This document shows positions 27,467-48,352 of a stretch of 64,000 bases of DNA, piece by piece. The notes under the pieces are model-generated. The model saw only the letters and a list, made by a program, of their open reading frames with translations, was not told the DNA's origin and made no database searches. The DNA lies in the NCBI GenBank assembly GCA_965224755.1, contig OZ245061.1, positions 2,247,612-2,311,611 on the forward strand. The letters are read 5' to 3'. Position numbers and translations under genes: made by a program. Source of the DNA: Hellea sp. GTDB taxonomy: Bacteria > Pseudomonadota > Alphaproteobacteria > Caulobacterales > Maricaulaceae. The stretch's first letter is position 1, and every line of letters begins with the position of its first letter.

Positions 27467-27486
27467 ATACCAATTTGAATTGGTAT
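27467..27486. promoter_or_regulatory. Candidate operator: perfect inverted repeat ATACCAAT-ttga-ATTGGTAT upstream of the symporter
   Basis: 8-bp arms at 27467..27474 and 27479..27486. Further TGGTA-type half sites lie at 27501..27507 (reverse) and 27520..27526. About 50 nt upstream of ATG 27538. Confidence 0.45.
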
Positions 27487-27537
27487 ATATACAAGTCAAA
27501 TTACCATAAACAAAAACAATGGTAGAGGGTTTAGGCA

Positions 27538-30765: not shown

Positions 30766-30807
30766 TCACCACCGGTTTTGCGCAAGATACGGCCATAAAC
30801 AGGCGCT
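30712..30807. repeat. Repeat R2 copy 1: hydrolase 3' end plus a 45-nt fragment of the D-aminoacylase 3' end
   Basis: 96 nt, roughly 90% identical by eye to 34714..34809. Positions 30762..30806 read on the minus strand as APVYGRILRKTGGD*, a copy of the D-aminoacylase C-terminus. Confidence 0.85.
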
Positions 30808-30914
30808 GTGAATTGACTACACAGCGCTCACGTTTAGGGGGCCTTAGCCCAGCTGGTAGAGCGCTTCGCTGGCAGCGAAGAGGTCAAGAGTTCGACTCCC
30901 TTAAGGCTCCACAC
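30802..30914 (+). repeat. Repeat R1 copy 2: leader plus a degenerate tRNA-Ala
   Basis: Begins at the same ggcgct as copy 1. That hexamer is also the last 6 nt of R2 copy 1, so the junction shows microhomology. Confidence 0.85.
30838..30914 (+). pseudogene. Degenerate tRNA-Ala(GGC) paralogue
   Basis: Same anticodon arm and G3:U70 as the intact copy. Differences: D stem GCCC/GAGC has a C-A mismatch; T stem AAGAG/CCCTT has one compensated and one uncompensated change; there is an extra A before the 3' acceptor strand; the 3' end is ACAC instead of ACCA. Confidence 0.6.
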
Positions 30915-30972
30915 CCCCACTTCATATTCTCCTGCGGATCGGTTCACCTGTCAGCCTCTGAATACGGGTTGG

Positions 30973-32061
30973 CTAGTCTCGAAAAAGTTCACCCACTTTT
31001 TGAGAGAAAACAACAGCGCCTACCGGGTTCATGTGGTCAGGATTATAAAAATTGATCTGTGAGCGCCGTGGTAAGTTTGCGTAAAAAAGGCCTAAGTCTT
31101 CTGGGTTCTCCCAAATATCATAGGCATAACCCTCCTTGAGAAAACGATTCATAAAATAACGCTCATCAAGCCCCCAATCATTTAGCGTAGGCGAAATCAC
31201 GCTTTGCGCGCAGGTGACATTCGCTTCGAGAAATTCGGATAGATCCGCATAGTCAGCACCGGGGTTGTATTTTGCAATCAATTTTGATGTTATTTCCGGG
31301 ACGGGCGCAATAATAATATCCAGTTCCATCCCCCGAAGTTTTAAATCCGTGCAAAAGCGGCGCAAATTATTTTTGTTTTGTGGATTGATTTTTGCCGTAT
31401 TTAAAACGGGGGCCAGATTGCTTTCACTAACCATTGGGAAAGCCTCTAACCGCTGTTTCACCTGTGCTAAAGAGAGTGATGTTATTTTATCGTGGTGAAG
31501 CCGCCGTTGTTTTTGATATAATTCTTTACTGAGCTTGAGTGGCGGCAAGCCTGCCTCTATATTTTCAATCCAAGCATCACTGATTTTTTTTTGCATATTT
31601 GAATCTGATAAAATTGCCCGCGCATAGTCAAGACGTTTGTCATGCTGTCCAAGCTTTAGTGGCACGCCCGCATCTGCCACCCAAATCAAACGCTTTGGCG
31701 ACAGGTTTTCTTTAGCGAGGAACGTCATAAATGGATGTAAGAAATCTGTATTCCATGTTGGGAGAGCGCATATAGCAACACGCTTTTTACCAAGTGTGCT
31801 TTTAAGAACATAGAGATCAATTGCGGCATAGGCATGGGAGCTACCAATAATAACTATATCGATATTTTGGCCGTGTTTTAAGGCAACACAACCCTCTGCA
31901 GCTTTACTGTGCAGCCCCATTAAAAATTCATCTTCTTGCACAATTTGGCTTAATCTTTTGGCATGGGGATCAGGTCTCTGCATTCCGTGAATGAGGTAAT
32001 TCATCGGCCAAATGATCAGTATTATAACCAGAATAAAGAATAACGGTTTAGGGTTTCTCAA
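30973..32061 (-). CDS. Membrane-anchored SGNH/DltD-like partner of the MBOAT acyltransferase
   Basis: 362 aa. N-terminal TM helix LFFILVIILIIWP. Candidate nucleophile IIGSSHAY. C-terminal NPDHMNPVGA (Asp/His pair). 15 nt downstream of the MBOAT gene. Confidence 0.55.
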   Translation of the reverse strand: MRNPKPLFFILVIILIIWPMNYLIHGMQRPDPHAKRLSQIVQEDEFLMGLHSKAAEGCVALKHGQNIDIVIIGSSHAYAAIDLYVLKSTLGKKRVAICALPTWNTDFLHPFMTFLAKENLSPKRLIWVADAGVPLKLGQHDKRLDYARAILSDSNMQKKISDAWIENIEAGLPPLKLSKELYQKQRRLHHDKITSLSLAQVKQRLEAFPMVSESNLAPVLNTAKINPQNKNNLRRFCTDLKLRGMELDIIIAPVPEITSKLIAKYNPGADYADLSEFLEANVTCAQSVISPTLNDWGLDERYFMNRFLKEGYAYDIWENPEDLGLFYANLPRRSQINFYNPDHMNPVGAVVFSQKVGELFRD

Positions 32062-32076
32062 ATCTCTCTCCTTGCT

Positions 32077-33543
32077 TTAAAACTGAAAATAAACAAATGG
32101 CGTACTGAGGCCGGCAAAATAAAATGAGGCCATGAATAAAAGGCAAAAGAAAATCAGCCAGCCATAATTGGCTTGCCACAGAGGCGGCCTGTGACCCAAA
32201 ATATGCCGATCACGATGCGCCGAGCCGCCGGACAATAAAACCTGCGTTGAAATTTCAATTCGCAAACAGATAATCATAAAAACAATAAAAATAATATTGA
32301 CCCAGCCCTGCAAAGATAACCCCACTATGCCTTCAGCTAAGGAAGAGACAGACACCAGCTTTCTTAAAATTACCTTGGCCACATAAAAATCAGGCGCTGT
32401 GAAAATAACTCCCATAATCATAAAGAAAGACAGGCTCAGCAAGACTGTAAAAAAAGTTCTGCCGGCCGGGCTAAAAATTGAAAATAGGCGAGTTGTCACA
32501 AACATCGACATCCATACAAGGATACCCCAAAAGAAAAATTGAATATTATTGCCGTGCCACAAGCTAGAAATTGTGATTGCAAAAAACATGGATATTCCAG
32601 CGCCCATCGGCCATTTATCCGTCAGGCGCCTGAGCGGCGCATATATATGATCCCTGACAAAATGATGAAATGTAATATGCCAGCGCGTCCAAAACTGCCT
32701 GAGTGAATTAGCCCGGAAAGGTGCGTTAAAATTAGCAGGCAGACGCAAGCCGATGAGCAGACCAATCCCGACCGCCATCTCGCTATAACCGCAAAAATCA
32801 AAATACACACGCGGCGGTGCGATAAGGGCAAGCTGCCAAGCCTCGACTATGGTTAAATCACCAAAAGCCGCTTTTGACATGAGCGGCGTGGCAATACGCC
32901 CAAGGCTGTCAGCGAGCACCACTTTTTTAAACAGCCCTAAGGAAAACCAGCCTATACCCTGACACGCCATATTCAGACGGGCCTCCAAAGTAATCCCGCT
33001 TAGAATGCGGGCAAATTCTCGTGTCATCCGTTTGTGCGTGACGATGGGCCCTGCCAAAAGCTGAGGAAAAAACATAATGAACCCGGCATAACTGATCAGT
33101 GATGTCACTGACGCGCGCCCGCGCCTTAAGTCCAGTAAATATCCGATTTGCTGAAAAATATAAAAGGAAATTCCGAGCGGTATAAGCAGGCCGGGCTGCT
33201 TGGCTTGTATCCAGCCATAGCTATTCCACAAATCAATGATAGAGGCTCCATATTTCCAAATGGCCAATGCCGAAAGATTAAGACCGATAGCAATCCATAA
33301 AAACAAAGGCGAATGTGTTTTTGATTTAAACCGCTCGTACAAATAGGCCATGCACCAGCTCATGACAATTAGGGCTAGCAACAGCAGCAAATGAGGGATC
33401 GAACCAAGGCCGTAAAAGATTATGGAGGTTATTAAGATCGCCGGGAGAAACAACTGTTTTTGCTTAAAAGCAGAAGCGGCAACAAGCAGAGCCAGTGCAA
33501 GCGGCAAAAAATAAAATAAAAAATCATATGTCGCAAATGACAT
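32077..33543 (-). CDS. MBOAT family O-acyltransferase (AlgI/DltB/PatA-like)
   Basis: 488 aa, polytopic. Conserved His region FWTRWHITFHHFVRDHIYAPL. Confidence 0.8.
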   Translation of the reverse strand: MSFATYDFLFYFLPLALALLVAASAFKQKQLFLPAILITSIIFYGLGSIPHLLLLLALIVMSWCMAYLYERFKSKTHSPLFLWIAIGLNLSALAIWKYGASIIDLWNSYGWIQAKQPGLLIPLGISFYIFQQIGYLLDLRRGRASVTSLISYAGFIMFFPQLLAGPIVTHKRMTREFARILSGITLEARLNMACQGIGWFSLGLFKKVVLADSLGRIATPLMSKAAFGDLTIVEAWQLALIAPPRVYFDFCGYSEMAVGIGLLIGLRLPANFNAPFRANSLRQFWTRWHITFHHFVRDHIYAPLRRLTDKWPMGAGISMFFAITISSLWHGNNIQFFFWGILVWMSMFVTTRLFSIFSPAGRTFFTVLLSLSFFMIMGVIFTAPDFYVAKVILRKLVSVSSLAEGIVGLSLQGWVNIIFIVFMIICLRIEISTQVLLSGGSAHRDRHILGHRPPLWQANYGWLIFFCLLFMASFYFAGLSTPFVYFQF

Positions 33544-33608
33544 AAATTTATACGATGCTAGGGGAAATCATTGTTGGATCACTTATTCGCTCTAAACCTT
33601 TAAGTATA

Positions 33609-33629
33609 TTGTCTATAAACTATAGACAA
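33609..33629. promoter_or_regulatory. Candidate operator: perfect 9-bp inverted repeat TTGTCTATA-aac-TATAGACAA
   Basis: Lies in the 134-nt divergent region between the MBOAT gene and the TauD-like gene. The GT...AC half-site architecture is typical of GntR-family operators. Confidence 0.4.
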
Positions 33630-33677
33630 GCCTAAAAAGAGGGGCTAATTTCTGGGGACTATAAAGCTGGGGCCGAA

Positions 33678-34697
33678 ATGGATATCACACACCTCAATAA
33701 TGCCGTGCAGGTTACGGGATGCGATCTTGAGAAAGATGAGGACTGCATAGAGCTTGGTCATATTTTGGCCGATGAATGTGTCTTGCTTGTCAAGGATAGC
33801 GTGTCTGAAAAACGGCTATATGATATTCATTCGCTTTGGGGGCAGCCAAGCTTCGCGATCATTCACCGCTATGTGAGCGAGCGGCGACTCACTGGGCGGC
33901 ATTGGCGCAACCTACTTTTAAATCTTGGCTATGCGTCAACAGCGGTTGATCATTTCGCCAATAAATCAGGGATGTCCCGGGTGAGTTTTGAAAAAAACAA
34001 ACGGGGTAAGCCCACAGGTAATTTTACCAATGGCGAGCTGGATTGGCACAGCGATCAACAAGCCTATCATGATAATCACCGCGTCGTTAGCCTGATGAGT
34101 CTCTGGGGCACAAAAAACAGCCAAACTTCATTTCTTTGCACAGCAAAGCCTTATGCAAAATTAAATCATGAAGACAAGTCTATGGTTGATGAACTTGTCA
34201 CGGTTTGGAATTGGGACGGCGGAAAAATGGCACCCGATCTTATACCCTCCCAAAGAGAAATTGTTCATTATAATATTATCCCTTATTCTGATATGGAGTG
34301 CGCGCTTGTTGATCAAACGGCGACAGGGATCAAAGGCATTCGCTTCCCAAGCCATTGCTTTAGCCATTTCAAAGGCATGTCCACCGCCGAAAGCCAGCGC
34401 TATAAAGATCATCTGTGGGAAATTTTACACCGGCCTGAATATGTTTACACCCATGACTGGGAAGACGGCGAGATAATGTTTATGGATCAAAACATCACCC
34501 TGCACGCTCGCCCTACCAATGTTCAGGATGGAAACAAAAGAACTTTGTGCCGCATGATTTCTTATCTTGATAAACTTTATCCCGGCAACGGCCCCGCAGA
34601 CCATGTCTTGTATGACGGCCAAAAACTGGACCATGAAACCTTTGCTAAAATGGTGGATGAACAGCGCAGATCTGAATATTACGCCAAAGCGTCATAA
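33678..34697 (+). CDS. TauD/TfdA family Fe(II)/2-oxoglutarate dioxygenase
   Basis: 339 aa. HxD iron motif in GELDWHSDQQ and a distal His in NITLHARP. Confidence 0.75.
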   Translation: MDITHLNNAVQVTGCDLEKDEDCIELGHILADECVLLVKDSVSEKRLYDIHSLWGQPSFAIIHRYVSERRLTGRHWRNLLLNLGYASTAVDHFANKSGMSRVSFEKNKRGKPTGNFTNGELDWHSDQQAYHDNHRVVSLMSLWGTKNSQTSFLCTAKPYAKLNHEDKSMVDELVTVWNWDGGKMAPDLIPSQREIVHYNIIPYSDMECALVDQTATGIKGIRFPSHCFSHFKGMSTAESQRYKDHLWEILHRPEYVYTHDWEDGEIMFMDQNITLHARPTNVQDGNKRTLCRMISYLDKLYPGNGPADHVLYDGQKLDHETFAKMVDEQRRSEYYAKAS

Positions 34698-34713
34698 ACG
34701 TCTAATATTCCGG

Positions 34714-34809
34714 GCCGATTGGAGTTTTGATTTTCAGGATTTGGGGTTTACGCGTCTTGAAGATTAGTCACCATCGGTTTTGCGCAAGATGCGTCCGTAA
34801 ACAGGCGCT
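34714..34809. repeat. Repeat R2 copy 2: relic of the hydrolase 3' end plus the genuine D-aminoacylase 3' end
   Basis: Encodes ADWSFDFQDLGFTRLED* on the plus strand; the intact hydrolase ends ADWSFDFQDLGFTRVED*. There is no upstream hydrolase body here. Confidence 0.85.
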
Positions 34810-36314
34810 TCGGAATTTTCCTCTGTATCGGTAACTTTTCCGTTGACGATCACGGCGTCAAAGCCGCTTGGCTTAGCCTTTATATCGCTCCAGCCTGTGC
34901 CGGCTTTTATATGCTCCAGATCAATCACCAATATGTCGGCGGCCAATCCCGGTTTCAAAATGCCCCGCGATTTTAAGCCAAATGTTTGCGCTGTCAGGCC
35001 GCTCATTTTATGCACGGCCCGTTCAACAGACATCAGTTTGTCGCGCACGACATAGTCCTCAAGCACTTTAGGAAATGATCCAAAGGATCGCGGGTGGCGC
35101 ATTGTTGGACTGCCGTCCGAGGATATAGACACATCGGGCGCGGTGATGAAGGCGTCTTGTGTGTCTTTGGTCATGATGAAATGCGCCGTTGACGGGCCGC
35201 TATGGCCGAAATCTATAATGACTTGTTCAGGGCGTTTACTCGTCATGTCGGCCACTTCTTGCAACGTCTTGCCCGCGTAATCCCCTTTAGAAATCAGGAT
35301 CGCGCCCGCGCCGTTTCTGCGCTCTATTTTGGCGCGTAGGAACGCTTCAAATTCTTCGCGGCGGTTTTGGGCGGCGTCCTCAAACTCGCTCTTACGCTTG
35401 GCCCATTCGGGGTAGAGATAGATCATGCTGCCATAGCTGGCCAGATAGGGATAAACATCGGCGGTGATTGTCATGCCTTGCGCCCGGGCGTCTCTGATTT
35501 GCGCCAGAACGGCATCCCCTTGCGCGCGGGTTTTGCCGTAGACGACCTTGATATGGGTGACATTGACCTTGGCATATTTGCCTTGCGCGATAACCTCGTT
35601 CACGGCCTCCATAACCTTGTCGTCATCCTCATTGCGGATATGGGACGAGATAAGCCCGTCATATTTGCCGACCACTTTGGCCAGCCCGTTAAGCTCTTCG
35701 GCGCCGGCATAGCGTCCCGGCAGATATTCAAGCCCTGTGCTCATGCCGTAAATGCCTTGTTCGAAACCTTCGGTTAGGAGCGCTTCCATTTTGGCTTGCT
35801 CGGCCGGGCTTACTTTGTCTTTTTCCCCGCCGCCGGAAATCGCGCGGAGAGAACCGTGCCCGATAAGCGCGGCGATATTGGGGCCGGAGCCGCGCTTATT
35901 GATATCCTTAATCCACTCTTTAAAAGGCAGCCTCCCATTGGGGCTGGACCCATCTTGGCCAAGGATGACAGTGGTCACGCCTTGGCGCAGAAAACTACGC
36001 AGATAATCATTATTGTTCGCCAAAGGATTGCCGTGGGAATGGGCGTCGATAAATCCGGGCGTGACGATTTTGCCGCTCGCGTCTATGGTTTTAGCAGCTT
36101 GTATTTTATGGCTGTCAACTTTACCAACATAGACAATCCGGTCGCCCATAGTCAGAACACCTCCCTTAATCGGCGCTTCGCCCGTACCGTCAACTATGGT
36201 GCCGCCTGCGATATGAAGATCATAATCAAGCGCGTAATCGGGCCCGGCAGCACCACCGCAACCTACGAGGATAAACAGGGCAAGGCCTGCTAATATCTGG
36301 ATAAATATTTTCAT
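34764..36314 (-). CDS. N-acyl-D-amino-acid deacylase family amidohydrolase (D-aminoacylase), lipoprotein
   Basis: 516 aa. Lipobox FILVGCG. Metal motif PGFIDAHSHG. Confidence 0.8.
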   Translation of the reverse strand: MKIFIQILAGLALFILVGCGGAAGPDYALDYDLHIAGGTIVDGTGEAPIKGGVLTMGDRIVYVGKVDSHKIQAAKTIDASGKIVTPGFIDAHSHGNPLANNNDYLRSFLRQGVTTVILGQDGSSPNGRLPFKEWIKDINKRGSGPNIAALIGHGSLRAISGGGEKDKVSPAEQAKMEALLTEGFEQGIYGMSTGLEYLPGRYAGAEELNGLAKVVGKYDGLISSHIRNEDDDKVMEAVNEVIAQGKYAKVNVTHIKVVYGKTRAQGDAVLAQIRDARAQGMTITADVYPYLASYGSMIYLYPEWAKRKSEFEDAAQNRREEFEAFLRAKIERRNGAGAILISKGDYAGKTLQEVADMTSKRPEQVIIDFGHSGPSTAHFIMTKDTQDAFITAPDVSISSDGSPTMRHPRSFGSFPKVLEDYVVRDKLMSVERAVHKMSGLTAQTFGLKSRGILKPGLAADILVIDLEHIKAGTGWSDIKAKPSGFDAVIVNGKVTDTEENSEAPVYGRILRKTDGD

Positions 36315-37735
36315 TTGATGGTTTTTATCGTGGTTGCGCGGTCGAGATAACTACGCTCAGGATTGGATTGTAAAGGCAACATAGGCGTGACCGAGACGCC
36401 GTTAAGCGTGCCTTTATAAAGCGTGCCGTCTTCCTTCATATACCCAAGCCCGTGAACATCGTGAATGACAAAGGGCTGGCCACCTGATTGCCCGAGCAGC
36501 ATCAGCACATGGCCGGGAATATATATGAGATCGCCGGGCTGGCCTTGTTTTAATCTCTCGATTTTATCGGCACGCATTTCTACCGTATTGGGCGCGTCCT
36601 CATCATAGCGCGAATTAATTCCAATATCACTGCGCCCTTGGTCGCCGCTATTGCGCGGCAATATAATGCCAAAACTCTTGTAAATTTCAGACACAAAGCC
36701 CGTGCAGTCTCGGCCATTAAATCTGTGGCCCCAGCCATAACGTTCGCCCAAAAACTTGAAAGATTGCTTGATGATATTTTCCTGCGTGAACGGCAGATAG
36801 CCTATGCTGACATCCTCTTTGCGCTGGATCAGAGCGTGTTTGAAACTAAGGCTTCCGTCGTCATTACGAACGGGCAAAAGCACCATATGGCTAAGATAGG
36901 GATTTTGGCCATAGAGATTATGCGCCAAATCTTTGGGCCGAGACAGAGGGAGGCAAACGCCCATATCAAGCTGTAATTCCGACACGCCCGACTCTACCGG
37001 GTTATAAACCGTGGAGACCTTATCGCCGGTCACAACGAGAAATTTTTCCGGATGAGCATAGTCCCATACGTCGTCAAAACTGCCAATCGCCAATGCGCTC
37101 AAAGGCGCCCAAGCGATATAATTATAGGACTGCACCAAGGCCCATTTCCCGTCCGTGCTCTCGTGCAGAACAACGGCTGGGTCGCCGGGGAAAAGGACGC
37201 TTTCCTGAAACCGTTCAATATCGCGGTCGCCCGCATCATGGCTAAAGAGAAGGTCGTCGGTGGGGTAAGTGCGAATATCTGTGCGCTTAACCGTAAGGGC
37301 ATAACGCACTGGATTATTATCGGCTACCGCGTCCAAATTCAGCAGGGCTTCAAGGCGGGCAAAATCAGGCGCGCCCAAAAGCGTTCCGTCCGTATAGATA
37401 CGTTTATATGTAGGGATTTTGGAGATGGAGCGCAGGCGGGCTGTCAACTCGTCTTTGGACAATGCCGGCGGGATATTTCCAAGATCATAAAGCGTCGGGT
37501 CATTGGTCACGCTTCGGGTATTAAAGGCCGCGATTTGCTTGGGGCTCATCACTATTTTATCCATGCCCGGTTTTATCCAATGCTCCGGCGAGAGATGCTT
37601 TTCGGAAACGCCGATAACGTCCGAGACAAATTCATCTTCAAAGCCAAGGTTTGTTTTCGGAGCATTTGTATTCTCACCGCAGCTAGCGCCAAAAACGGCG
37701 ATAGCAAAACAAAAAAGATGTGCTTTAGGGTTCAT
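36311..37735 (-). CDS. SH3b plus NlpC/P60 cysteine peptidase (YkfC-like gamma-D-glutamyl-diamino-acid endopeptidase type), exported
   Basis: 474 aa. Signal peptide ends FGASCG. Catalytic region RYGWGHRFNGRDCTGFVSEIYKSFGIILPRNSGDQ and GDLIYIPGHVLMLLG. Confidence 0.75.
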   Translation of the reverse strand: MNPKAHLFCFAIAVFGASCGENTNAPKTNLGFEDEFVSDVIGVSEKHLSPEHWIKPGMDKIVMSPKQIAAFNTRSVTNDPTLYDLGNIPPALSKDELTARLRSISKIPTYKRIYTDGTLLGAPDFARLEALLNLDAVADNNPVRYALTVKRTDIRTYPTDDLLFSHDAGDRDIERFQESVLFPGDPAVVLHESTDGKWALVQSYNYIAWAPLSALAIGSFDDVWDYAHPEKFLVVTGDKVSTVYNPVESGVSELQLDMGVCLPLSRPKDLAHNLYGQNPYLSHMVLLPVRNDDGSLSFKHALIQRKEDVSIGYLPFTQENIIKQSFKFLGERYGWGHRFNGRDCTGFVSEIYKSFGIILPRNSGDQGRSDIGINSRYDEDAPNTVEMRADKIERLKQGQPGDLIYIPGHVLMLLGQSGGQPFVIHDVHGLGYMKEDGTLYKGTLNGVSVTPMLPLQSNPERSYLDRATTIKTIK

Positions 37736-37742
37736 AATAATC

Positions 37743-38906
37743 TCACGTAAATGACGATAATATTTTACCGATCAGCAGCCCGCCGCCTGTGCCAATAATA
37801 TAGCCGAGCATAGCCATTAAAACGCCAATAGGAATAAGCGCGCGCGAATAAGCGGCGGCCAGAATAGGGGCCGAAGCCACGCCGCCAATATTGGCTAACG
37901 ATGCCACGCCACAAGAAAATAAATCGAGCTTAAATAGTTTTGCCGCGATCAGCATAATAATGCCGTGGATGATTAAGATCATAAAGCCCGCCGCAATAAA
38001 TATTGGCGCTTGGCCGAGCTCTGCAAAATTAGCCCGCGACGCAATTAAGGCGATAATGCCGTATAGCAGAATATTACCAAGCTCGCTTGAGCCGGCAATA
38101 CGTCCAAGTTTTGTCATGGCGCCACCCGCGCCAAATATAGTCACAATCAAAACCGTCCAAGTGGTCTTTGAGAAGAACTCTGTGACGGGCAAAAATCCCG
38201 CAAGATATTGCGCGACGGCAGAGGCCGCGAGTCCCAACCCAATAAGAAACAGCAGCGAGGATGTTGTCATGGACGCATCACTATTTTGAGATTTCGCTTC
38301 AATTTTCGCGCTGATATCATCAATCAGCTGGGTATTGCTTTTCGTCCATTTGTTAAATTGCGGGGCGAGCGGAACGAAGGCCAAAAGTAAGACAACCCAA
38401 ATCGCGTAATCAATAGAATCCATTAGCAGCGTATAGCCCATACTGGCATCGGGAATATTCAGAGCGCCCTGCACGGCCACCATATTGCCCGTCCCGCCCA
38501 TCCAGCTTCCGCTTAGCGCGGCAAATGTCATCCACGCATCTTCGGGCAGCCATGTTTTAAAGGCTAGAAATGTGAGGATAAATCCGATGCCAATACTCAA
38601 GCTCGCCGTAATAAAAGCGAGGAGCATTTTAGGGCCAAGGGCCGCAATCTGCCGAATATCCCCTTTGAGTAAAAGCAGAAAAATCATAGAGGGAAGCAGA
38701 TTGCCTTTGAGCACACTGTAAGCTGTGTTGACGCTGTCGGTTTTGGTCCAAAACCCGAAGGTCGAGAGCAGCATGACAACAAAATACAAGATAACAATGC
38801 CGGGAATGATTTTGAAAATCCGGTATTTCTCCGTGGATTCAAGCAGGCTTAAAGCCCCGCAAATCATAAATAAAACAGCTATATATGCAAACCCGCCCGT
38901 GATCAT
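37743..38906 (-). CDS. DUF819-like polytopic membrane protein (putative permease)
   Basis: 387 aa, about 10 or more hydrophobic segments. No soluble domain. Confidence 0.6.
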   Translation of the reverse strand: MITGGFAYIAVLFMICGALSLLESTEKYRIFKIIPGIVILYFVVMLLSTFGFWTKTDSVNTAYSVLKGNLLPSMIFLLLLKGDIRQIAALGPKMLLAFITASLSIGIGFILTFLAFKTWLPEDAWMTFAALSGSWMGGTGNMVAVQGALNIPDASMGYTLLMDSIDYAIWVVLLLAFVPLAPQFNKWTKSNTQLIDDISAKIEAKSQNSDASMTTSSLLFLIGLGLAASAVAQYLAGFLPVTEFFSKTTWTVLIVTIFGAGGAMTKLGRIAGSSELGNILLYGIIALIASRANFAELGQAPIFIAAGFMILIIHGIIMLIAAKLFKLDLFSCGVASLANIGGVASAPILAAAYSRALIPIGVLMAMLGYIIGTGGGLLIGKILSSFT

Positions 38907-38924
38907 AATTTTGCCTCGTTCATT

Positions 38925-40205
38925 TTAAATCCAATCTGGCACATCTTCTCTGTCCAATATATCTTCAAGGCTCGGCCGCTTTCTTATGACGGCATATTTA
39001 TCGCCGCTGACCAGAACTTCCGGGACGAGCGGGCGAGTATTATATTCGCTGGACTGCACAGCGCCGTAGGCGCCGGCTGACCGGATTGCAACAAGATCGC
39101 CTTCCTGCATTTTTGGCATGTCGCGCAGCTCAGCAAATGTATCTCCGGTTTCGCAAACCGGGCCAACTATATCATATTTAATTCTATCATTTGAAATATT
39201 TTCCGCCTTTACAGGTTCAACGATATGGTGCGCGCCATAAAGGGCCGGACGGATCAAATCATTCATCGCGGCGTCTAATATCAGGAAATTTCGTGCCCCG
39301 CCCGATTTGATATATTTGACTTCAGAGAGCAATATTCCGGCATTGCCGGCAATAGAGCGTCCGGGTTCAAAGATAATTTTTAAGTCATGGTTTTTAATTT
39401 TGCGCCCCACCATTGCAACATAAGCGGCAGGCAATGGAGGCTCGTTTTGATCTTCACTATAATTAATACCGAGGCCGCCGCCAAGGTCGTAAGTTTTAAT
39501 ATCATGCCCGTCGCTGCGCAAGGTTTTGACAAGATATAAGATTTTATCCATGGCTTTTTCAAACGGCGCTAAGTCTGTGATCTGGCTGCCGATATGCATA
39601 TCAACGCCGGTCACCTTCAGGCCGGGAAGCTCGCGGATTTTAATGTAAGCGGCTCTGGCCAGCGTAATGTCTATGCCAAATTTATTTTCCGCATTGCCCG
39701 TGGATATTTTTTCATGCCCGCCTGCATTGACGTCAGGATTAATGCGCAAAGCTACAGGTGCTGTTGTGCCCATAGACACGGCAACTTCGCTCAGCGCCAT
39801 AAGCTCTGACACAGATTCGACGTTGAATTGATAAATGCCTGCGCCCTGATTGGCGCCAAGCGCGGCGCGCATTTCGTCTTTGGATTTGCCCACGCCCGAG
39901 AACACGATTTTTTGGGGCGCAATACCCGCGCGCAAAGCCCGCTCAAGTTCGCCGCCGCTGACAACATCCGCGCCTGCGCCCAATTTAGCTAAAAGCGAAA
40001 GTATAGCGAGGTTGGAATTGGCTTTGACCGAATAAGCAATCAAATGATCAAGGTCTTGGGCGGCAGAAGAAAAGGCTGTGTAGTGCCGCGTAAAAGTGGC
40101 GGCGCTATAGACATAAACCGGGGTGCCGACATCTTTAGCAATTACGGAAAGCGGAATATCTTCCGCGTATAATTGCCTATGTTTTTGCTGAAAATGATTC
40201 ATCAA
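38925..40205 (-). CDS. lysA: Diaminopimelate decarboxylase
   Basis: 426 aa. PLP-lysine context YSVKANSNLAIL, then DLGGGLGI and VGPVCETGD. Confidence 0.9.
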   Translation of the reverse strand: MMNHFQQKHRQLYAEDIPLSVIAKDVGTPVYVYSAATFTRHYTAFSSAAQDLDHLIAYSVKANSNLAILSLLAKLGAGADVVSGGELERALRAGIAPQKIVFSGVGKSKDEMRAALGANQGAGIYQFNVESVSELMALSEVAVSMGTTAPVALRINPDVNAGGHEKISTGNAENKFGIDITLARAAYIKIRELPGLKVTGVDMHIGSQITDLAPFEKAMDKILYLVKTLRSDGHDIKTYDLGGGLGINYSEDQNEPPLPAAYVAMVGRKIKNHDLKIIFEPGRSIAGNAGILLSEVKYIKSGGARNFLILDAAMNDLIRPALYGAHHIVEPVKAENISNDRIKYDIVGPVCETGDTFAELRDMPKMQEGDLVAIRSAGAYGAVQSSEYNTRPLVPEVLVSGDKYAVIRKRPSLEDILDREDVPDWI

Positions 40206-40226
40206 ATGACTTTGAAAAATAAGGAC

Positions 40227-41501
40227 TTATTTGTTCGCATAGACTTGAGCCGCATCCAAAACACGGAGCAGGTTTTCGCCCCATATTTTGCTGATGTCTT
40301 CGGCGCTATAGCCGCGTTTCACAAGTTCCTTGGTGATATTCAAAGTTTCTGTGGCGTCCATCCAGCCGTCAATTTTACCGCCGCCGTCAAAATCAGAAGA
40401 AATGCCGACATAATCAATGCCTACGGTTTTCACGACATGGTCAATATGGTCAACCAGATCAGATACATTGGCGGGGGGCGCGAGTTTCTTAGACGCCTGC
40501 ATTTTTTCATCGTAGAGTTTTTCCGTATCTTCATCCATGGACATAAAAGCAAAATCGTCTTCCAGCCCCATTTCGGCGCGCACTTGTTTTTTGAGAGCCT
40601 CCTGCTCCGGGGTGAGGTCTTTTAGATAGGGGCCATAGGCCACAATTTGCACCACGCCTCCGGCTTTGGCCAAAGCGCGTAATTGCTCATCGTCCAGATT
40701 GCGGAGGTTATTGGATATGCCCGACGCGCCGGAATGGGAGGCGATAACGGGCACTTTGGATAGAGCAACGGCTTGAAGCATTGTCTCTTTGCTGGCATGG
40801 GAAACATCGACCATAATGCCTGCCTGATTGAGCGCGGCGACAAGCTGCTTTCCGAGCGGGGATAGGCCGCCGTGCAAGCTCTCGCTTTCGCCTTTATTAT
40901 AGCTTGGGTTTGAGCTATCGCCGAATTGATTATGGCCAACATGCGTGATGCCCATATAGCGCACGCCGAGTCCGGCCCAATTTGCCACATCATCAACAGA
41001 ATTGCCGAGCGAATATGCATTTTCAATCCCGATAAAGGCTATACGTTTTCCGTTCTTATGGATACGCCGCGCATCGTTGGCTGTAAGCGCCAATGCAATG
41101 CGGTCATTATGTTTTTCCGCTAGCCGCATAATCGCATTATAGCGTGTTTCTGCAATGGCTAGCGCTTCGCCGACGCCCGCTTTGTTAAGCTCGCCTTGCG
41201 GGGTAAACACGATCAGGAAGGCCCCGTCCATGCCGCCGGCTTCCATGCTGTCCAAATTGGCGCGGCTCTTTCCGCTAGACCACGGATCCATATCTTCCGC
41301 AATCAGCTCAAGCTCCAAATCAATATGGCTATCGAGGACAAGAGCATTTTCATGTATGGACTCCACCCTTTCTGAAGAAGAAAAGCTTGTAGGAGGCTCC
41401 TGTACAGAACAGGCACTAAGTACAAGGATAAGTGCGGGTAAAACAGCAGTGTATTTGGTTTTACTATGATACAAAACGAGCCTCCTTAATTGGGCATTCA
41501 T
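40227..41501 (-). CDS. Membrane (renal-type, M19) dipeptidase, lipoprotein
   Basis: 424 aa. Lipobox LVLSACS. LDSHIDL, THVGHNQF and SSDFDGGG motifs. Confidence 0.8.
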   Translation of the reverse strand: MNAQLRRLVLYHSKTKYTAVLPALILVLSACSVQEPPTSFSSSERVESIHENALVLDSHIDLELELIAEDMDPWSSGKSRANLDSMEAGGMDGAFLIVFTPQGELNKAGVGEALAIAETRYNAIMRLAEKHNDRIALALTANDARRIHKNGKRIAFIGIENAYSLGNSVDDVANWAGLGVRYMGITHVGHNQFGDSSNPSYNKGESESLHGGLSPLGKQLVAALNQAGIMVDVSHASKETMLQAVALSKVPVIASHSGASGISNNLRNLDDEQLRALAKAGGVVQIVAYGPYLKDLTPEQEALKKQVRAEMGLEDDFAFMSMDEDTEKLYDEKMQASKKLAPPANVSDLVDHIDHVVKTVGIDYVGISSDFDGGGKIDGWMDATETLNITKELVKRGYSAEDISKIWGENLLRVLDAAQVYANK

Positions 41502-41512
41502 CTAATGGTCGA

Positions 41513-42445
41513 TTAATACCGCGCGTCAATTGCTAAAAGTTCGTCTAACCTCTTGGGGCGGTATTTCTCTATTAATGCAAATAAGATAGCTGTGCTTTCT
41601 AGTGTCGGCTGGCCCGTGACTTCGGACGGCCTGAAATGGAGTTGGAACGCGCGCAGGGCATTACGGGTCTGCTCGTCCATAATGCCGGTAGGTTCAATTT
41701 TGTAGCCATAGGTGCCCAGCGCTCTCTGTACATTGATGATCGGCATCGGCTTAGCGGCAAATTGTTCCCAATATTTTACAACCGTATCATCGTCAAACCA
41801 CGCCCCAATGCCGAGCTTATAGAGCCTTTGCCACGGAAACCGGGGGCCGGGATCTATTTTGCGGCTCGGCGCGATATCGGAATGGCCGATGATATTAACA
41901 GGTTTGATGTCAGGATGCCGTTCTAGAATTTCATCCAGTAACGTGATCAATATCTTCATCTGGGATTCGGCAAAATCCGGGTAAAAACATAATCGCGGGG
42001 GTTTGTTAGTCTTGGCAGTGGAGGTTTTGCAATAGGTTTGATTGACAACCTCTATGCCAATGGATTGATCGTTTAAACCGCTCTTCCCGGCCCAATAACT
42101 GCGCCCCGCATGCCATGCCCGCTCTGATTCGGGGACAAGCTCATATATCTCCAGCTTGTCCTTGGTATAACTCTTATCACTGGGATCGGGGACAAGATAG
42201 TGCGAGCTCACGGGTCTGGACGAAGCTTTGGTCAAAATATTTACCGATTCCTCAAAATTGGCTGAGGTATGATGAATGACAATAATACTGACGCGGCTAT
42301 TATAATTTACGGATGGTAAAGCGTTTGTTTTGCCTAGGGTGGTGCAGGCTGACACGCTGAGCCCTGCGGCCATGACAGCCATGCGGCGGGCTAAACGGGC
42401 CGCTAAAGCGCCTGTAAATCGTGGAAAAGTAGAGAATACAGTCAT
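41513..42445 (-). CDS. N-acetylmuramoyl-L-alanine amidase (Amidase_2, AmiD/AmpD type) with a C-terminal peptidoglycan-binding repeat, lipoprotein
   Basis: 310 aa. Lipobox LSVSACT. IVIHHT, ERAWHAGRSYW and IIGHSDIAPSRKIDPGP. C-terminal INVQRALGTYGYKIEPTGIMDEQTRNALRAFQ. Confidence 0.82.
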   Translation of the reverse strand: MTVFSTFPRFTGALAARLARRMAVMAAGLSVSACTTLGKTNALPSVNYNSRVSIIVIHHTSANFEESVNILTKASSRPVSSHYLVPDPSDKSYTKDKLEIYELVPESERAWHAGRSYWAGKSGLNDQSIGIEVVNQTYCKTSTAKTNKPPRLCFYPDFAESQMKILITLLDEILERHPDIKPVNIIGHSDIAPSRKIDPGPRFPWQRLYKLGIGAWFDDDTVVKYWEQFAAKPMPIINVQRALGTYGYKIEPTGIMDEQTRNALRAFQLHFRPSEVTGQPTLESTAILFALIEKYRPKRLDELLAIDARY

Positions 42446-42566
42446 ATAAAGGTCTAATTTCGGTTTTAAATGTTTTGTATTTTAAGGTAGCAACTCTTGT
42501 TTCATCTGCTCCAGATTTATCAATACTCTCTAATAAAACAAGGGAAATCAGACCGGAAATACAAAA

Positions 42567-42599
42567 TGGTGTTAAATTGGTATTAGTATTGTAGGTATT
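42567..42599. promoter_or_regulatory. Three phased TGGTATT-like boxes (11-nt period): candidate NagQ-type operator
   Basis: TGGTGTT (42567..42573), aaat, TGGTATT (42578..42584), agta, TTGTAGG (42589..42595). Lies in the divergent region between the amidase operon and the TonB-dependent receptor. Confidence 0.5.
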
Positions 42600-42640
42600 A
42601 ACAGCCAAATAAACGCTAAAACAGCCTTATAAGTTTAAAA

Positions 42641-42676
42641 TGGTATTTGACTTTGCAGATTTTATGACGGTATTGT
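42641..42676 (+). promoter_or_regulatory. Candidate sigma70-type promoter of the receptor gene, overlapped by a fourth TGGTATT box
   Basis: TGGTATT at 42641..42647. TTGACT at 42647..42652, an 18-nt spacer, then TATTGT at 42671..42676. ATG at 42735. Confidence 0.35.
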
Positions 42677-42734
42677 GATTCAATATCAGAAATCTCTGGT
42701 TACACAGGGCAGAAATCAAACAAAGGGGAAATAC

Positions 42735-45700
42735 ATGACAAAAATTTCGCACAAATCGAGAAAATTCCACCTAAATTATAATAAAATCCTGACAGGCGCT
42801 ATATTAGCGGCAAGTCTTGCTTTTATCAGCACTCCGGCAGCGGCCCAGCAATCAGGCACAGTTAATGGCCGTATCACGGCAAATGATGGCTCAGCGCTCT
42901 CTGGCGTCACCGTTGAAGCGACCAGCCCGGTCTTGCCGGGCATCAGAACGGCGACCTCGTCGGCAAATGGCCGTTATCAACTCCCGCTCCTGCCGCCGGG
43001 TCAATATGTGCTAACCTTCAGAAATAGCGACGGCCGGGTGATAGAGCGCTCAACAGCCGTGCTTTTGCAGCAAAGAATCAAAGTTGACGTTGCCTTTGAA
43101 GGCAGCGACGAAATTGTTGTGACCGGGCAAAGAATGTATGTCGATACGGGTCATGCGGCATTGAAAAACACTCTTGGGGCAGACATAATTGAAGGCATTC
43201 CGGTTGGGCAGGAATATCGCGACATTCAAAAATTGATTCCGGGCGTTCAATATACTGAAGACACGGTGCGCGGGCCTAGCGCGGGCGGTAACGGCCAAGA
43301 CAATGTCTATCAATTTGACGGTGTTGACGTATCCTTGCCTTTATTTGGCACGTTATCTGCGGGTCCTTCAACCCATGATATTGCTCAGGTGTCTATAATT
43401 CGCGGCGGCGCGACCGGAATTGGGTTTAACCGCTCTGGCGGCTTTACCATTAACACGATCAGTAAACGCGGCACCAATGAATATCACGGCGAAATCAGCT
43501 ATAAGGCTGAGACACCCAGCCTTACGGCGGCTCGCAAACAGGCCGCTACGGTTGTTGACTTTGAAGAAAATAAGCGCTGGATTACCGCAAATCTTGGCGG
43601 GCCCATCATTAAAGACAAATTGTTTGGATATGCCTCTTACTACCGCCCGACGGTGACGCAGGACACTAGAAGCAATGTTAGAGGGGCCCAGCCTCCTAAA
43701 ACGACTGAGCGCAATGAGTATTTTGGTAAACTAACATTTGCGCCGACTGAGAACATTCTTTTAGACGCTAGTTATAGGACCTCAGACAGTTCGTCCCGTG
43801 GTTTCGGAATAGAATCATTTGACGCATCATCTCTGTCGACAGGATCAGAGGATAGCCAAGACATTATTATTGCTGAGGGTTCGTGGGTTATTAATGACAA
43901 AAGCTCATTAAATTTCAAATTCACGGATTTTAAGAGTGGTTTCACATCGCGGCCGGATACGCTTTTTAATGTCCCAGTGTCGCTTGGCGGGTCGTTAAAT
44001 ATTGGCGCGCTTGACACAGTGGGCGAGTTTCATGTGCCGACGCCGATTACTGGAGATGCTGCTTTTAACACCTTCATTCAGCCCTTTATCAATCAATATG
44101 GTTTTTCTGAGAACGGTGTGCAAACAGGCGGCGGCAGAGTTGGCGGCGATAGTTTCATCAACGGTCAAGACTTCTCACGTCAGGTCTTTGAAGTTGGCTA
44201 TGATCGTAGATTTGAGCATGGGGAAACCACGCATGACGTTCATATCGGTTACCAATATATGGCCATCGAAGAGGATTTGACGCGTATAACCAATGGATTT
44301 GGTAATATTAATGTTATTGGCGGTCGTGCCTCAACGCGAACCGGCGACCTTCTACCAGATGGAAGTGCAATTGGGGCAGCTGTGCCGATATTCTTTCAGG
44401 CTAATGTCTTTCGGACGGGTCTTGTTGACGCAAGCGGTAACCCCACTGGGCCGCGGACAATCAATTCACGCTCTGAACTACAAAGTTTAGAATTTAACGA
44501 CACGGTTGAGCGCGGAGACTGGACATATAATTTCGGGGTCTTGGTCAGTAATGACACCTTATTCGGCCAAGGTTTACGCGTAAATGCAAACTCGATTTCA
44601 GGGTTTGAACTGGCTCCCGGCGAGCGCTACAAAATGTATGAGGTTGATTGGAAAGATATGATCCAGCCGCGCTTTGGCGTCAATTGGGATTATTCAGATA
44701 GTGCCTCTGTTTACGCTAATTTTGCGCGCTACACACCCGCTGCTTCATCCTTGGCGCGGGCCGCATCTTGGGATCGGAATTTGGCGCGTGAAACCCGACT
44801 TTATTACGATGCAAATGGTGACTTTATTGCCAGTAGGCCAAGAGGTTCATCTTCCGGTAAGTATTTTGATGATGGTTTAAAACCTCGCCAGATCAAAGAA
44901 TATATTATTGGTTGGAACAAAGATGTGAGCGACGAACTCGACGTGCGCGTTCATGCCCGCCATCGCGCCGGAACAAATTTCTGGGAAGATACCAATAACA
45001 ATGCACGGACGCGTTTTAACGCTCCGCCCGAAATTGCCGCTCTGGGAGATTATATTCCCAATCTGAATGATATTCGTTTTGGCGGGCCAAACCCAATTTT
45101 TGGCTCTTCCTATGTTATCGCTCAACTCGATACAGCCCATACGGAATATTATGAGGTCAGTCTTGAAGCCGATTATAATCGCGATAATTTCTTTCTGACA
45201 GGGTCTTATACGTGGTCACGATATACAGGGAATTTTGACCAGGATAATGCAACAACAGCTAATGATGCCAATGTGTTTATCGGTTCTTCTTTACTTGCCG
45301 ATGGCGCGGGGCGTCAGCTCTGGGATAATAAAGAAGGCATCTTAAGAGGTGACCGCACCCATCAATTCAAGGTCTATGGGTATTATAATCTGCCTTGGAA
45401 CGCAAAAGTTGGCGGATTTGCGAATTACCAATCCGGTCAGCCTTGGGAAGTCTGGGATGTGGGCGTTTATCGTTCTTTAACAGGCAGTGGTAGCGACACA
45501 ATACGTTTTGGTGAAGCCGCCGGATCGCGCCGCGCCGACAGCCAGTTCCGGGTTGATTTGAATTATACTCAAAACTTTGAAGTTATGAATGGGTATAATA
45601 TCCAGTTAAGCGCCGATCTGTTTAACGTATTTAATAGCCAGACAGGGTATAACATAGACAGCAAGGCTAGGGGCAGAACAATACAGGAGTTAGGGCAAGG

Positions 45701-45770
45701 CAGTTTTGGATTGCCGCGAAGCTTTATCGATCCGCGCCGCCTACGGCTCACGGCCAAGGCAAGTTTTTAG
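42735..45770 (+). CDS. Oar-type TonB-dependent outer-membrane receptor (CarboxypepD_reg-like N-domain)
   Basis: The ORF is open from GTG 42675. ATG 42735 gives MTKISHKS... with a signal peptide ending PAAAQQ. GRITANDGSALSGVTVEATSP is a carboxypeptidase-regulatory-like domain. C-terminal ...RLTAKASF ends in an aromatic residue. Confidence 0.82.
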   Translation: MTKISHKSRKFHLNYNKILTGAILAASLAFISTPAAAQQSGTVNGRITANDGSALSGVTVEATSPVLPGIRTATSSANGRYQLPLLPPGQYVLTFRNSDGRVIERSTAVLLQQRIKVDVAFEGSDEIVVTGQRMYVDTGHAALKNTLGADIIEGIPVGQEYRDIQKLIPGVQYTEDTVRGPSAGGNGQDNVYQFDGVDVSLPLFGTLSAGPSTHDIAQVSIIRGGATGIGFNRSGGFTINTISKRGTNEYHGEISYKAETPSLTAARKQAATVVDFEENKRWITANLGGPIIKDKLFGYASYYRPTVTQDTRSNVRGAQPPKTTERNEYFGKLTFAPTENILLDASYRTSDSSSRGFGIESFDASSLSTGSEDSQDIIIAEGSWVINDKSSLNFKFTDFKSGFTSRPDTLFNVPVSLGGSLNIGALDTVGEFHVPTPITGDAAFNTFIQPFINQYGFSENGVQTGGGRVGGDSFINGQDFSRQVFEVGYDRRFEHGETTHDVHIGYQYMAIEEDLTRITNGFGNINVIGGRASTRTGDLLPDGSAIGAAVPIFFQANVFRTGLVDASGNPTGPRTINSRSELQSLEFNDTVERGDWTYNFGVLVSNDTLFGQGLRVNANSISGFELAPGERYKMYEVDWKDMIQPRFGVNWDYSDSASVYANFARYTPAASSLARAASWDRNLARETRLYYDANGDFIASRPRGSSSGKYFDDGLKPRQIKEYIIGWNKDVSDELDVRVHARHRAGTNFWEDTNNNARTRFNAPPEIAALGDYIPNLNDIRFGGPNPIFGSSYVIAQLDTAHTEYYEVSLEADYNRDNFFLTGSYTWSRYTGNFDQDNATTANDANVFIGSSLLADGAGRQLWDNKEGILRGDRTHQFKVYGYYNLPWNAKVGGFANYQSGQPWEVWDVGVYRSLTGSGSDTIRFGEAAGSRRADSQFRVDLNYTQNFEVMNGYNIQLSADLFNVFNSQTGYNIDSKARGRTIQELGQGSFGLPRSFIDPRRLRLTAKASF

Positions 45771-48284: not shown

Positions 48285-48352
48285 AAAACAGCCTTTAAAA
48301 AGAATACTATAACGCTGTCCTATTGGGTTTCAAGCCGCTAAGATATACGAAG

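Follow-up and report, generated by a model that had tools for sequence, protein, structure and literature searches.

A predicted peptide-processing operon containing lysA and a DUF819 carrier in a likely peptidoglycan-scavenging locus of a Hellea alphaproteobacterium

We analyzed a 64,000-nucleotide stretch of the Hellea sp. genome (contig OZ245061.1, positions 2,247,612 to 2,311,611; hereafter, the window) and focused on six minus-strand open reading frames (ORFs) at window positions 34764-42445, which combine lysA and a transporter gene of the uncharacterized DUF819 family with genes for four exported hydrolases. In the direction of reading, the six genes encode an AmiD/AmpDh-like N-acetylmuramoyl-L-alanine amidase (41513-42445, 310 aa), an M19 dipeptidase (40227-41501, 424 aa), the diaminopimelate decarboxylase LysA (38925-40205, 426 aa from a TTG start; the public gene call has 425 aa, from an ATG one codon in, at 40202), a predicted secondary transporter of the DUF819 family (PF05684; 37743-38906, 387 aa), a predicted SH3b-NlpC/P60 endopeptidase for the bond between gamma-D-Glu and meso-diaminopimelate (mDAP; 36311-37735, 474 aa), and a D-aminoacylase-like amidohydrolase (34764-36314, 516 aa) whose gene overlaps the preceding one by 4 nt. 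The gaps between them are 11, 21, 18, 7, and -4 nt. A first-pass annotation of this DNA had described the same operon; its coordinates match exactly, and our profile matches agree with the families it assigned to the six genes. For comparison, we used about 90 related loci (labeled L001 and so on), several of them from metagenome-assembled genomes (MAGs), with Robiginitomaculum, Hellea, Fretibacter, and Algimonas as the nearest named relatives. The gene order of the operon was found again in at least 14 related genomes. Within the six-gene block, a consensus scan found promoter- and terminator-like sites to be no more common than in shuffled sequence, a result that is silent on internal promoters either way. 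From the layout, a single transcript for the six genes would be plausible.

All four hydrolases of the operon carry lipobox-type N-termini, as the first-pass annotation had stated, and LysA has no signal peptide. These signals were read by eye from the translations, with no predictor: LSVSA-C34 in the amidase, VLSA-C31 in the M19 protein, FGAS-C19 in the NlpC/P60 protein, and LVG-C19 in the aminoacylase. The amidase consists of Amidase_2 (PF01510) and a C-terminal PG_binding_1 domain (PF01471), with E 3e-27 for the match, an architecture that together with lipobox Cys34 fits the AmiD/AmpDh periplasmic amidases; its best solved relatives are AmpDh3, AmpDh2, and Escherichia coli AmiD (E 3e-58 to 6e-51), and its orthologues in relatives have lipoboxes too. 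The M19 protein is a full-length match to Peptidase_M19 (PF01244; 316.7 bits, E 2e-94). Its best solved relatives, 3B40, 2RAG, and 3ID7, are deposited in the PDB merely as dipeptidases; we take 2RAG to be a Caulobacter protein and 3ID7 to be Sco3058. Enzymes of the M19 family prefer L-Xaa-D-Xaa dipeptides.

The fifth gene encodes a protein with SH3_6 and NLPC_P60 domains. Its best solved relative is DvLysin from Desulfovibrio vulgaris (3M1U), not YkfC, with which the first-pass annotation had grouped it. Like DvLysin, it is a lipoprotein, and its motifs YGWG, RDC(344), PRN(362)S, and GH are all as in that enzyme. Asn362 stands where BcYkfC has the partner Asp256, and Asn is found at this position in DvLysin and in 46 of 47 DUF819-linked homologues. 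Unlike DvLysin, the window protein has a tyrosine, Tyr206, in alignment with Ala211, the position of the YkfC tyrosine, and this Tyr is present in 40 of the 47 homologues. The tyrosine of SH3b1 contacts the free amine of L-Ala and blocks anything larger, and A211Y alone makes the peptidoglycan lysin DvLysin specific for stem peptides (PMC4600125). The c-clip motif of DvLysin, RxFxPW, was not seen in the N-terminal 145 residues of the window protein. These data suggest that the NlpC/P60 protein probably acts on free stem peptides in the manner of YkfC without being a strict member of the YkfC subfamily: the Tyr gate is kept, but the scaffold is of the DvLysin type, with Asn362 instead of the YkfC Asp.

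The last gene encodes an Amidohydro_3 protein similar to PRK09061. Its best solved relative is the N-acyl-D-glutamate deacylase Bb3285 (3GIP/3GIQ; 200 bits for 3GIP), with which it shares the HxH metal motif; unlike Bb3285, it is an exported lipoprotein. In Bb3285, Arg295, located in the specificity loop of the alpha/beta domain, binds the side-chain carboxylate of D-Glu and confers D-Glu specificity (PMC12149444). This position is Trp304 in the window protein and Trp in all eight of the other locus orthologues, nine in all. With the arginine replaced throughout, it is unsafe to transfer to this enzyme the L-Xaa-D-Glu activity that the first-pass annotation had noted for some deacylases of this kind. 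Hydrolysis of N-acyl-D-Ala-type bonds, such as that of mDAP-D-Ala or that at the end of the tetrapeptide, would be at least as likely.

The fourth gene encodes a full-length match to PF05684 (320.7 bits, E 2e-95, positions 2-379 of 379). No function had been assigned to DUF819/PF05684 in the literature searched, where 10 papers mention DUF819 and where the family is placed in the CPA/AT clan, among reentrant-helix carboxylate carriers (PMC8396727). The AlphaFold model of the window protein (predicted local distance difference test score, 85) agrees with this placement: the nearest fold is that of the Na+/citrate symporter CitS (template modeling score, 0.59-0.69), with a more distant likeness to the Asp:Ala exchanger AspT. 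A sequence search against solved structures gave nothing useful, and no member of the family has a solved structure. Over the best aligned segment, the window protein is 56-63% identical to homologues from Clostridia, Campylobacterota (Sulfurovum), Gammaproteobacteria (Paraglaciecola), and others.

We then counted the genes within 4 kb of DUF819 in 80 species-representative loci; the genome of the window itself was not one of the species representatives. An epimerase of the MR_MLE family was encoded in 47 of them, an SH3b-NlpC/P60 protein in 39, either or both in 66, and lysA in 6; several of the 14 loci with neither epimerase nor NlpC/P60 end next to DUF819. M19 is present in 10 of the 80 loci. 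The 66 linked loci span Alpha- and Gammaproteobacteria, Campylobacterota, Clostridia, and a few other lineages. The units differ in their makeup: DUF819-DUF3870-epimerase in Clostridia, DUF819-epimerase in Sulfurovum, DUF819-NlpC/P60(-epimerase)-symporter-kinase-MurQ-NamZ in Alteromonadales, and amidase-DUF819-NlpC/P60 in Fretibacter. DUF819 has an M15 peptidase as its partner in Neisseria meningitidis (PMC12671195). The DUF3870 protein (109 aa), found between DUF819 and the epimerase in 21 of the 80 loci (e.g., L008, 9189-9518) and Clostridia-type, is a second uncharacterized family tied to the L-Ala-D/L-Glu pathway.

The linked epimerases match the L-Ala-D/L-Glu epimerase YkfB of Bacillus subtilis (E 1e-89), and all 54 of them retain R24, K162, D191, E219, D244, K268, D321, and D323. 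The YkfB reference sequence and the roles of these residues are what we take to be those of the Gerlt-laboratory work; the sequence aligned with the expected residues at the expected numbers. LysA and, in the relatives, this epimerase are the only cytoplasmic enzymes of the peptide branch. Some relatives have either the aminoacylase or the epimerase, some have both, and some have neither, which hints that the two enzymes are alternative routes. L-Ala-D-Glu alone is both released by the exported endopeptidase and used by the cytoplasmic epimerase, and for this reason we favor it as the cargo of DUF819. The same scheme was proposed for Bacillus cereus by Xu et al., with exported YkfC, import of L-Ala-D-Glu by an ATP-binding cassette (ABC) transporter, and cytoplasmic YkfB (PMC2954226).

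We next considered lysA. The window protein scored 469.6 bits against TIGR01048 (cut-off, 297.9) over residues 6-420 and matched PF02784 and PF00278, the two domains of the Orn/DAP/Arg decarboxylases. Its gene begins 21 nt after the M19 gene and has no LptM-like gene directly upstream; LptM-like ORFs (LAGCGLRG..PPP) precede lysA in L004 and L091. Association of lysA with this gene set was found in four arrangements, in two alphaproteobacterial orders, represented by the families Robiginitomaculaceae and Kordiimonadaceae. The arrangement M19-lysA-DUF819 is that of the window, L012, L013, L014, and L093. In L018, L019, and L021, M19-lysA is convergent with an NhaC-family carrier that in turn diverges from DUF819. 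In four Kordiimonas species and Pseudokordiimonas, lysA lies between an AmpH-like/NhaC pair and an RpiR regulator, 2-4 kb from DUF819-NlpC/P60-epimerase. Finally, L001 has lysA-epimerase without DUF819. The claim that lysA has a catabolic context here, made in the first-pass annotation, thus holds insofar as the link to the locus recurs, but lysA is not a conserved member of the operon.

Two features of these loci stand apart. An NhaC-family carrier (PF03553) is common in the alphaproteobacterial loci (L019, 8408-9889, minus strand; L024, 15388-16845, minus strand; L007, 17546-18922, plus strand). It lies beside lysA in L018, L019, L021, and Kordiimonas and is found in lysA-free loci as well, and the window has none. 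Its cargo may be mDAP or a D-amino acid; we did not adopt it as the true DAP importer. In the metagenomic locus L093 (3296-6589), BlaI/BlaR1-type genes (Penicillinase_R, Peptidase_M56) and a gene for an APC amino acid permease come ahead of the operon. The permease gene is the second one upstream of lysA, with M19 between them, and neither the amidase nor the receptor gene is found there.

In a quick neighbor-joining tree, computed without support values, the locus-linked LysA proteins formed one clade, apart from the lptM-lysA housekeeping clades. The context of the latter is serS...lptM-lysA/tatCBA in L091, L095, and L096, and R. antarcticum (L004) also belongs with them. A 4-residue insertion, NQGA (LysA residues ~117-120, before GIYQFNVES), is present in the window, L012, L013, and L014 and absent from LysA of L093, L001, L018, L019, and L021 and from all housekeeping LysAs; as a marker of the embedded lineage it was rejected, since it marks that subclade alone. 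Two MAGs bear on copy number. MAG COA69 has the operon without lysA and an lptM-lysA gene (assigned via the nearby accessions PHR90854.1 and PHR91111.1). MAG JAJRSG01 has both an embedded lysA (contig 236, JAJRSG010000236.1, L012) and a housekeeping lysA in the context serS...lysA/tatCBA (contig 124, JAJRSG010000124.1, L095), 61% identical to each other; it is a binned MAG with the embedded copy on a 4.7-kb contig, and misbinning is possible.

The first-pass annotation had asked for a second, housekeeping lysA in this genome. A search with a housekeeping-type LysA (P0160) found none from the window's 2.74-Mb contig or from near-identical strains among the 120 matches listed, all at least 65% identical, a hit-list result rather than a whole-genome scan and compatible with a very divergent second decarboxylase. 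The same was true of the 2.63-Mb genome of L001, again among the 120 matches listed. The embedded copy is thus apparently the sole lysA here rather than an additional one kept for catabolism. In that annotation, the lack of any other lysA was half of the case against salvage; a salvage role is nevertheless not refuted, with lysA under the apparent control region of the locus. The window lysA appears to have replaced the lptM-linked housekeeping copy and would then serve both biosynthesis and salvage. The simplest reading of the clades and copy numbers is that lysA was duplicated, that one duplicate joined the peptidoglycan locus, and that one or the other copy was then lost by lineage.

We read the operon as the peptide branch of a wider locus for scavenging peptidoglycan, a context that the first-pass annotation had missed and that strengthens the murein stem-peptide theme it had proposed. 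Divergent from the operon lies a gene for a TonB-dependent-receptor-like outer-membrane protein of the Oar type (42735-45770, plus strand; the ORF runs from 42675, and Met21 is the likely start). Its translation of 1031 aa has a signal peptide ending in AAA/QQ, a TonB-box-like DEIVVTGQR, and a C-terminal Phe; a search by sequence against solved structures gave nothing useful. The gene is kept beside the amidase gene in 10 relatives. Beyond it are genes for a NagK/MurK-like sugar kinase of the BadF/BcrA ATPase family (47421-48284, minus strand; a Pfam match, conserved in the locus, and at 246 bits under the cut-off of 370 of the NagK_SO3507 model), a NagB-II-like glucosamine-6-phosphate deaminase (48323-49393, plus strand; NCBIfam NagB_SO3506, 344 bits, with the cut-off of 430 not reached), the N-acetylglucosamine-6-phosphate deacetylase NagA (49390-50535, plus strand; TIGR00221, 305 bits, cut-off 226), a GntR/HutC-family regulator with GntR and UTRA domains in Pfam (50543-51286, minus strand), the N-acetylmuramic acid (MurNAc)-6-phosphate etherase MurQ (51560-52450, minus strand; NF003915, 349 bits, cut-off 168), and an exo-beta-N-acetylmuramidase of the NamZ family (52634-53887, minus strand; NamZ_N and NamZ_C, E 4e-79) with a hydrophobic N-terminus. 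The NamZ family has reportedly been characterized in an earlier study. The same locus is present in Fretibacter, Algimonas, R. antarcticum, and several MAGs.

Downstream of the operon, a Pfam match to the SSF sodium:solute symporters (27599-29158, plus strand) and an exported AmpH/DD-peptidase-like serine hydrolase with DUF3471 (29155-30765, plus strand) are encoded by genes that overlap by 4 nt. The hydrolase matches AmpH and R61 DD-peptidase-like proteins. In the relatives, this pair faces the end of the operon in convergent orientation, and every hydrolase of the locus (amidase, M19, NlpC/P60, aminoacylase, AmpH-like, and NamZ) has an export signal. Among solved structures, the symporter matches 5NV9 best (E 2e-32; deposited as a "putative sodium:solute symporter"), which we take to be the sialic acid symporter SiaT of Proteus mirabilis. 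We propose that the symporter is a MurNAc importer; its gene lies immediately before kinase-MurQ-NamZ in gammaproteobacteria, as fits a carrier like Tannerella MurT (PMC5790795).

Other genes in and around the locus were noted as well. A protein of 524 aa with TPR and sulfotransferase domains is encoded inside it (45838-47412, minus strand); the gene also occurs in L006, L007, L011, L013, L014, L016, L017, L020, and L023, and it is conserved across Robiginitomaculaceae, mostly beside the receptor gene or the symporter pair, with no obvious role in peptidoglycan use. L013 (6180-7349 and 15315-16550) and likewise L014 encode two further NamZ-like proteins, with 47% and 31% identity to the window NamZ; one of the genes is located in the operon between the amidase and M19 and the other just after the aminoacylase. 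Just beyond NamZ in the window is a histidine-utilization cluster (54052-61406) with urocanase, N-formylglutamate amidohydrolase, histidine ammonia-lyase, an imidazolonepropionase-like amidohydrolase, and a second GntR/UTRA regulator.

The units of the locus share a short motif, WWTGGTATW, which occurs eight times in the window, where 3.6 matches would be expected. Control regions of the peptidoglycan locus account for five of these eight: two in the divergent region between operon and receptor (region 42446-42734; copies at 42576-42584 and 42639-42647), a palindromic pair upstream of the symporter (27466-27487; copies at 27466 and 27479), and one upstream of the GntR gene (51508-51516). The motif was found at equivalent intergenic positions in 11 of 13 Robiginitomaculaceae loci checked, namely, between receptor and amidase, upstream of the symporter, and between NagB-II and kinase; L022 and L093 had none. 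In L018, L019, and L021, it is located upstream of M19-lysA and of DUF819. This conserved candidate operator is consistent with a single regulon. The GntR/UTRA protein is a candidate repressor of such a regulon, and we infer its pairing with WWTGGTATW. In the Kordiimonas locus L024 (~16900-16930), the 124-bp region between the NhaC-family gene and lysA contains a perfect palindrome, ACGAATAATATATTCGT, which adjoins a gene for an RpiR/MurR-type regulator and may be an operator that places the Kordiimonas lysA under a MurR-like regulator.

Taken together, we consider it fairly likely that this Robiginitomaculaceae (Maricaulales) alphaproteobacterium has a larger regulon for scavenging peptidoglycan in which the six genes form the operon for peptide processing. 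For the pathway, we infer substrates, a direction of transport, and a passage of mDAP through the inner membrane as follows. Wall fragments would reach the periplasm, probably via the divergent TonB-receptor-like protein, and the AmiD-like lipoprotein would remove stem peptides from MurNAc. The Tyr-gated NlpC/P60 protein would cut the free stem peptides between gamma-D-Glu and mDAP, yielding L-Ala-D-Glu and mDAP(-D-Ala), and the M19 and D-aminoacylase-like enzymes would trim L-Xaa-D-Xaa and N-acyl-D-amino-acid bonds such as mDAP-D-Ala. The CitS-fold carrier DUF819 would import an acidic product of the endopeptidase, most likely L-Ala-D-Glu, and LysA would convert mDAP that has reached the cytoplasm to L-lysine. 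In parallel, a sugar branch would run through NamZ, the SiaT-like symporter, the kinase, MurQ, NagA, and NagB-II. A stronger form of this scheme, in which the DUF819 subfamily is a dedicated L-Ala-D-Glu permease and a paralogous LysA lineage is specialized in meso-DAP salvage and has displaced lptM-lysA in some genomes, that of the window among them, we put forward only tentatively, as somewhat short of probable.

Several observations weigh against this scheme. The receptor-like protein matched only CarboxypepD_reg in Pfam, with no Plug or barrel match in Pfam or NCBIfam even at E <= 5. The 64-kb window holds no homologue of the L-Ala-D/L-Glu epimerase, so that, if DUF819 imports L-Ala-D-Glu, the enzyme that consumes it must be encoded elsewhere. 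The periplasmic aminoacylase or M19 could destroy L-Ala-D-Glu before import, in which case the cargo of DUF819 would be different here, and gene linkage alone cannot separate import of the epimerase substrate from import of mDAP. As for lysA, it does not belong to the core of the operon. It is absent from most DUF819 loci and from the operons of the closest relatives, and its placement could be incidental: the operon lacks lysA in L006, L007, L011, L016, L017, L020, L022, and L023. Loci that have the operon but not lysA are known from R. antarcticum, Algimonas, Litorimonas, and Fretibacter, and DUF819 of L007 and L011 is 87% identical to that of the window. The gene set in close relatives is amidase-M19-DUF819-NlpC/P60-aminoacylase, with M19 and DUF819 124 bp apart in L007. 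The possible misbinning in JAJRSG01 and the room for a divergent second decarboxylase count on the same side.

Can the neighborhood of DUF819 be explained by another cargo? The first-pass annotation had DUF819 import meso-DAP, or mDAP-D-Ala, for LysA to make into lysine, a salvage line from DAP to lysine. In the window, lysA lies 18 nt upstream of DUF819, and the two are adjacent also in L012, L013, L014, and L093; mDAP is the other product of the adjacent endopeptidase, a fold like those of CitS and AspT suits a dicarboxylic amino acid, and DUF819 and the symporter are the sole inner-membrane carriers in the window's locus. The wider comparison points elsewhere. The partner of DUF819 is the epimerase in 47 of the 80 species and lysA in 6, and the epimerase or NlpC/P60 in 66; in a 23-protein panel, the Clostridia and Sulfurovum units consist of DUF819 and epimerase, with or without DUF3870, and no lysA. 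In three arrangements, moreover, a different carrier adjoins lysA, the NhaC-family protein in L018/L019/L021 and in Kordiimonas and the APC permease in L093, and a cross-phylum identity as high as that of the DUF819 proteins argues for one conserved substrate. DAP import is therefore the weaker reading, and we regard it, together with the salvage line built on it, as unlikely. Import of whole tri- or tetrapeptides, with DUF819 as a non-ABC counterpart of MppA-Opp or AmpG and processing in the cytoplasm, appears quite improbable. An S66 LD-carboxypeptidase gene lies nearby in gammaproteobacteria, and the E. coli S66 LD-carboxypeptidase is cytoplasmic. YkfC of B. subtilis is cytoplasmic as well (PMC2954226). 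However, the linked NlpC/P60 proteins have signal peptides, in Clostridium too, and the gammaproteobacterial S66 proteins have Tat-like signals, so that cleavage is extracytoplasmic, and cytoplasmic processing of whole stem peptides was rejected on the basis of these export signals, found on all linked NlpC/P60 and S66 proteins. The dipeptide epimerase is the only conserved cytoplasmic partner, and a CitS-fold carrier of 387 aa would be a poor fit for a tetrapeptide. DUF819 is thus more likely an importer of L-Ala-D-Glu than of DAP: we give L-Ala-D-Glu about an even chance of being its substrate and mDAP a small one, with other products making up the remainder.

The remaining rival concerns lysA, which could be a plain housekeeping gene that landed in the operon by rearrangement, without any tie to the catabolism of murein peptides. 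It is apparently the sole lysA in the genome and has a normal LysA score, the operons of the closest relatives lack it, and the region has been rearranged, with a 96-nt junction duplication around a 3.9-kb insertion just downstream. Chance placement accounts poorly for the recurrence of the same gene set beside lysA in four arrangements, in both Robiginitomaculaceae and Kordiimonadaceae. Nor is joint transfer a ready explanation: the Kordiimonas LysA is ~50% identical to the window LysA versus 57-66% for the other locus proteins, and co-transfer of lysA is unlikely for that reason. The locus-linked clade is distinct from lptM-lysA, with both types in one MAG, and M19-lysA in L018, L019, and L021 comes with a regulon motif of its own. 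On balance, we consider the housekeeping explanation doubtful and retain lysA as part of the predicted scavenging regulon.

The rearrangement mentioned above can be traced in the window. A 96-nt direct repeat, 92% identical (30712-30807 and 34714-34809), flanks the 3.9-kb insert (30808-34713) and is a copy of the ancestral convergent junction, where the stop of the AmpH-like gene is next to that of the aminoacylase gene; relatives have these two genes directly abutting with no insert between them. The insert contains a second tRNA-Ala(GGC), a 362-aa ORF without a Pfam match, an MBOAT acyltransferase, and a TauD-family dioxygenase. It looks like an islet with a long target duplication, and no integrase was seen in it. 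The two tRNA-Ala(GGC) genes, which bracket the symporter/AmpH-like genes, are part of a direct repeat of 116 nt (91% identical; 27207-27322 and 30802-30917).

Parts of this system have known counterparts. In Bacillus ykfABCD, the YkfC endopeptidase and YkfB epimerase are encoded beside a Dpp/Opp transporter (PMC2954226). The locus resembles ykf in its SH3b gamma-D-Glu-mDAP endopeptidase with the Tyr gate and, in the relatives, in a YkfB-type epimerase with catalytic and Glu-binding residues; the predicted order of exported endopeptidase, imported dipeptide, and cytoplasmic epimerase is that of the B. cereus proposal. Unlike ykf, its carrier is a CitS-fold secondary transporter rather than an ABC system, its endopeptidase is of the DvLysin type, and the window lacks the epimerase and adds a periplasmic M19 protein, the D-aminoacylase-like enzyme, and lysA. 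Tannerella forsythia scavenges MurNAc from exogenous peptidoglycan with murTKQ and NamZ (PMC5790795; bioRxiv 10.1101/2021.12.02.470905). The likeness lies in the sodium-symporter-type transporter, kinase, MurQ, and NamZ; the Tannerella system, however, is the sugar branch alone, without the peptide operon, DUF819, or lysA. A cell wall peptide also serves as a source of DAP/lysine in the murein salvage of E. coli, where the tripeptide is imported by MppA-Opp and cleaved by MpaA, mDAP is reused, and Mpl acts as ligase. There, import comes before cleavage and lysA is outside the operon; here, cleavage would be periplasmic, and lysA is co-located and apparently co-regulated with the hydrolases. 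Thus, the peptide chemistry is already known from Bacillus ykf and E. coli MpaA/MppA, and the sugar branch is known from Tannerella MurTKQ/NamZ. What would be new, judging from the genes, is DUF819 as a conserved transport step, a fully periplasmic lipoprotein toolkit behind a TonB-type receptor, and a lysA paralogue in the regulon.

The linkage of DUF819 across phyla gives a specific and testable hypothesis for its substrate, L-Ala-D-Glu, with mDAP as the alternative. If this is true, DUF819 is the missing transport step that leads from the exported gamma-D-Glu-mDAP endopeptidases to the L-Ala-D/L-Glu epimerase in the cytoplasm. The biosynthetic lysA would have been drawn into a catabolic regulon, duplicated, and differentially lost, such that salvage and biosynthesis share one enzyme, and we predict that a regulator that senses the cell wall controls lysine synthesis in this organism. 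We propose that the locus as a whole is a route from receptor to cytoplasm by which marine alphaproteobacteria feed on the cell walls of other bacteria. Peptidoglycan is a large pool of organic nitrogen in the sea, and such a route would bear on its turnover.

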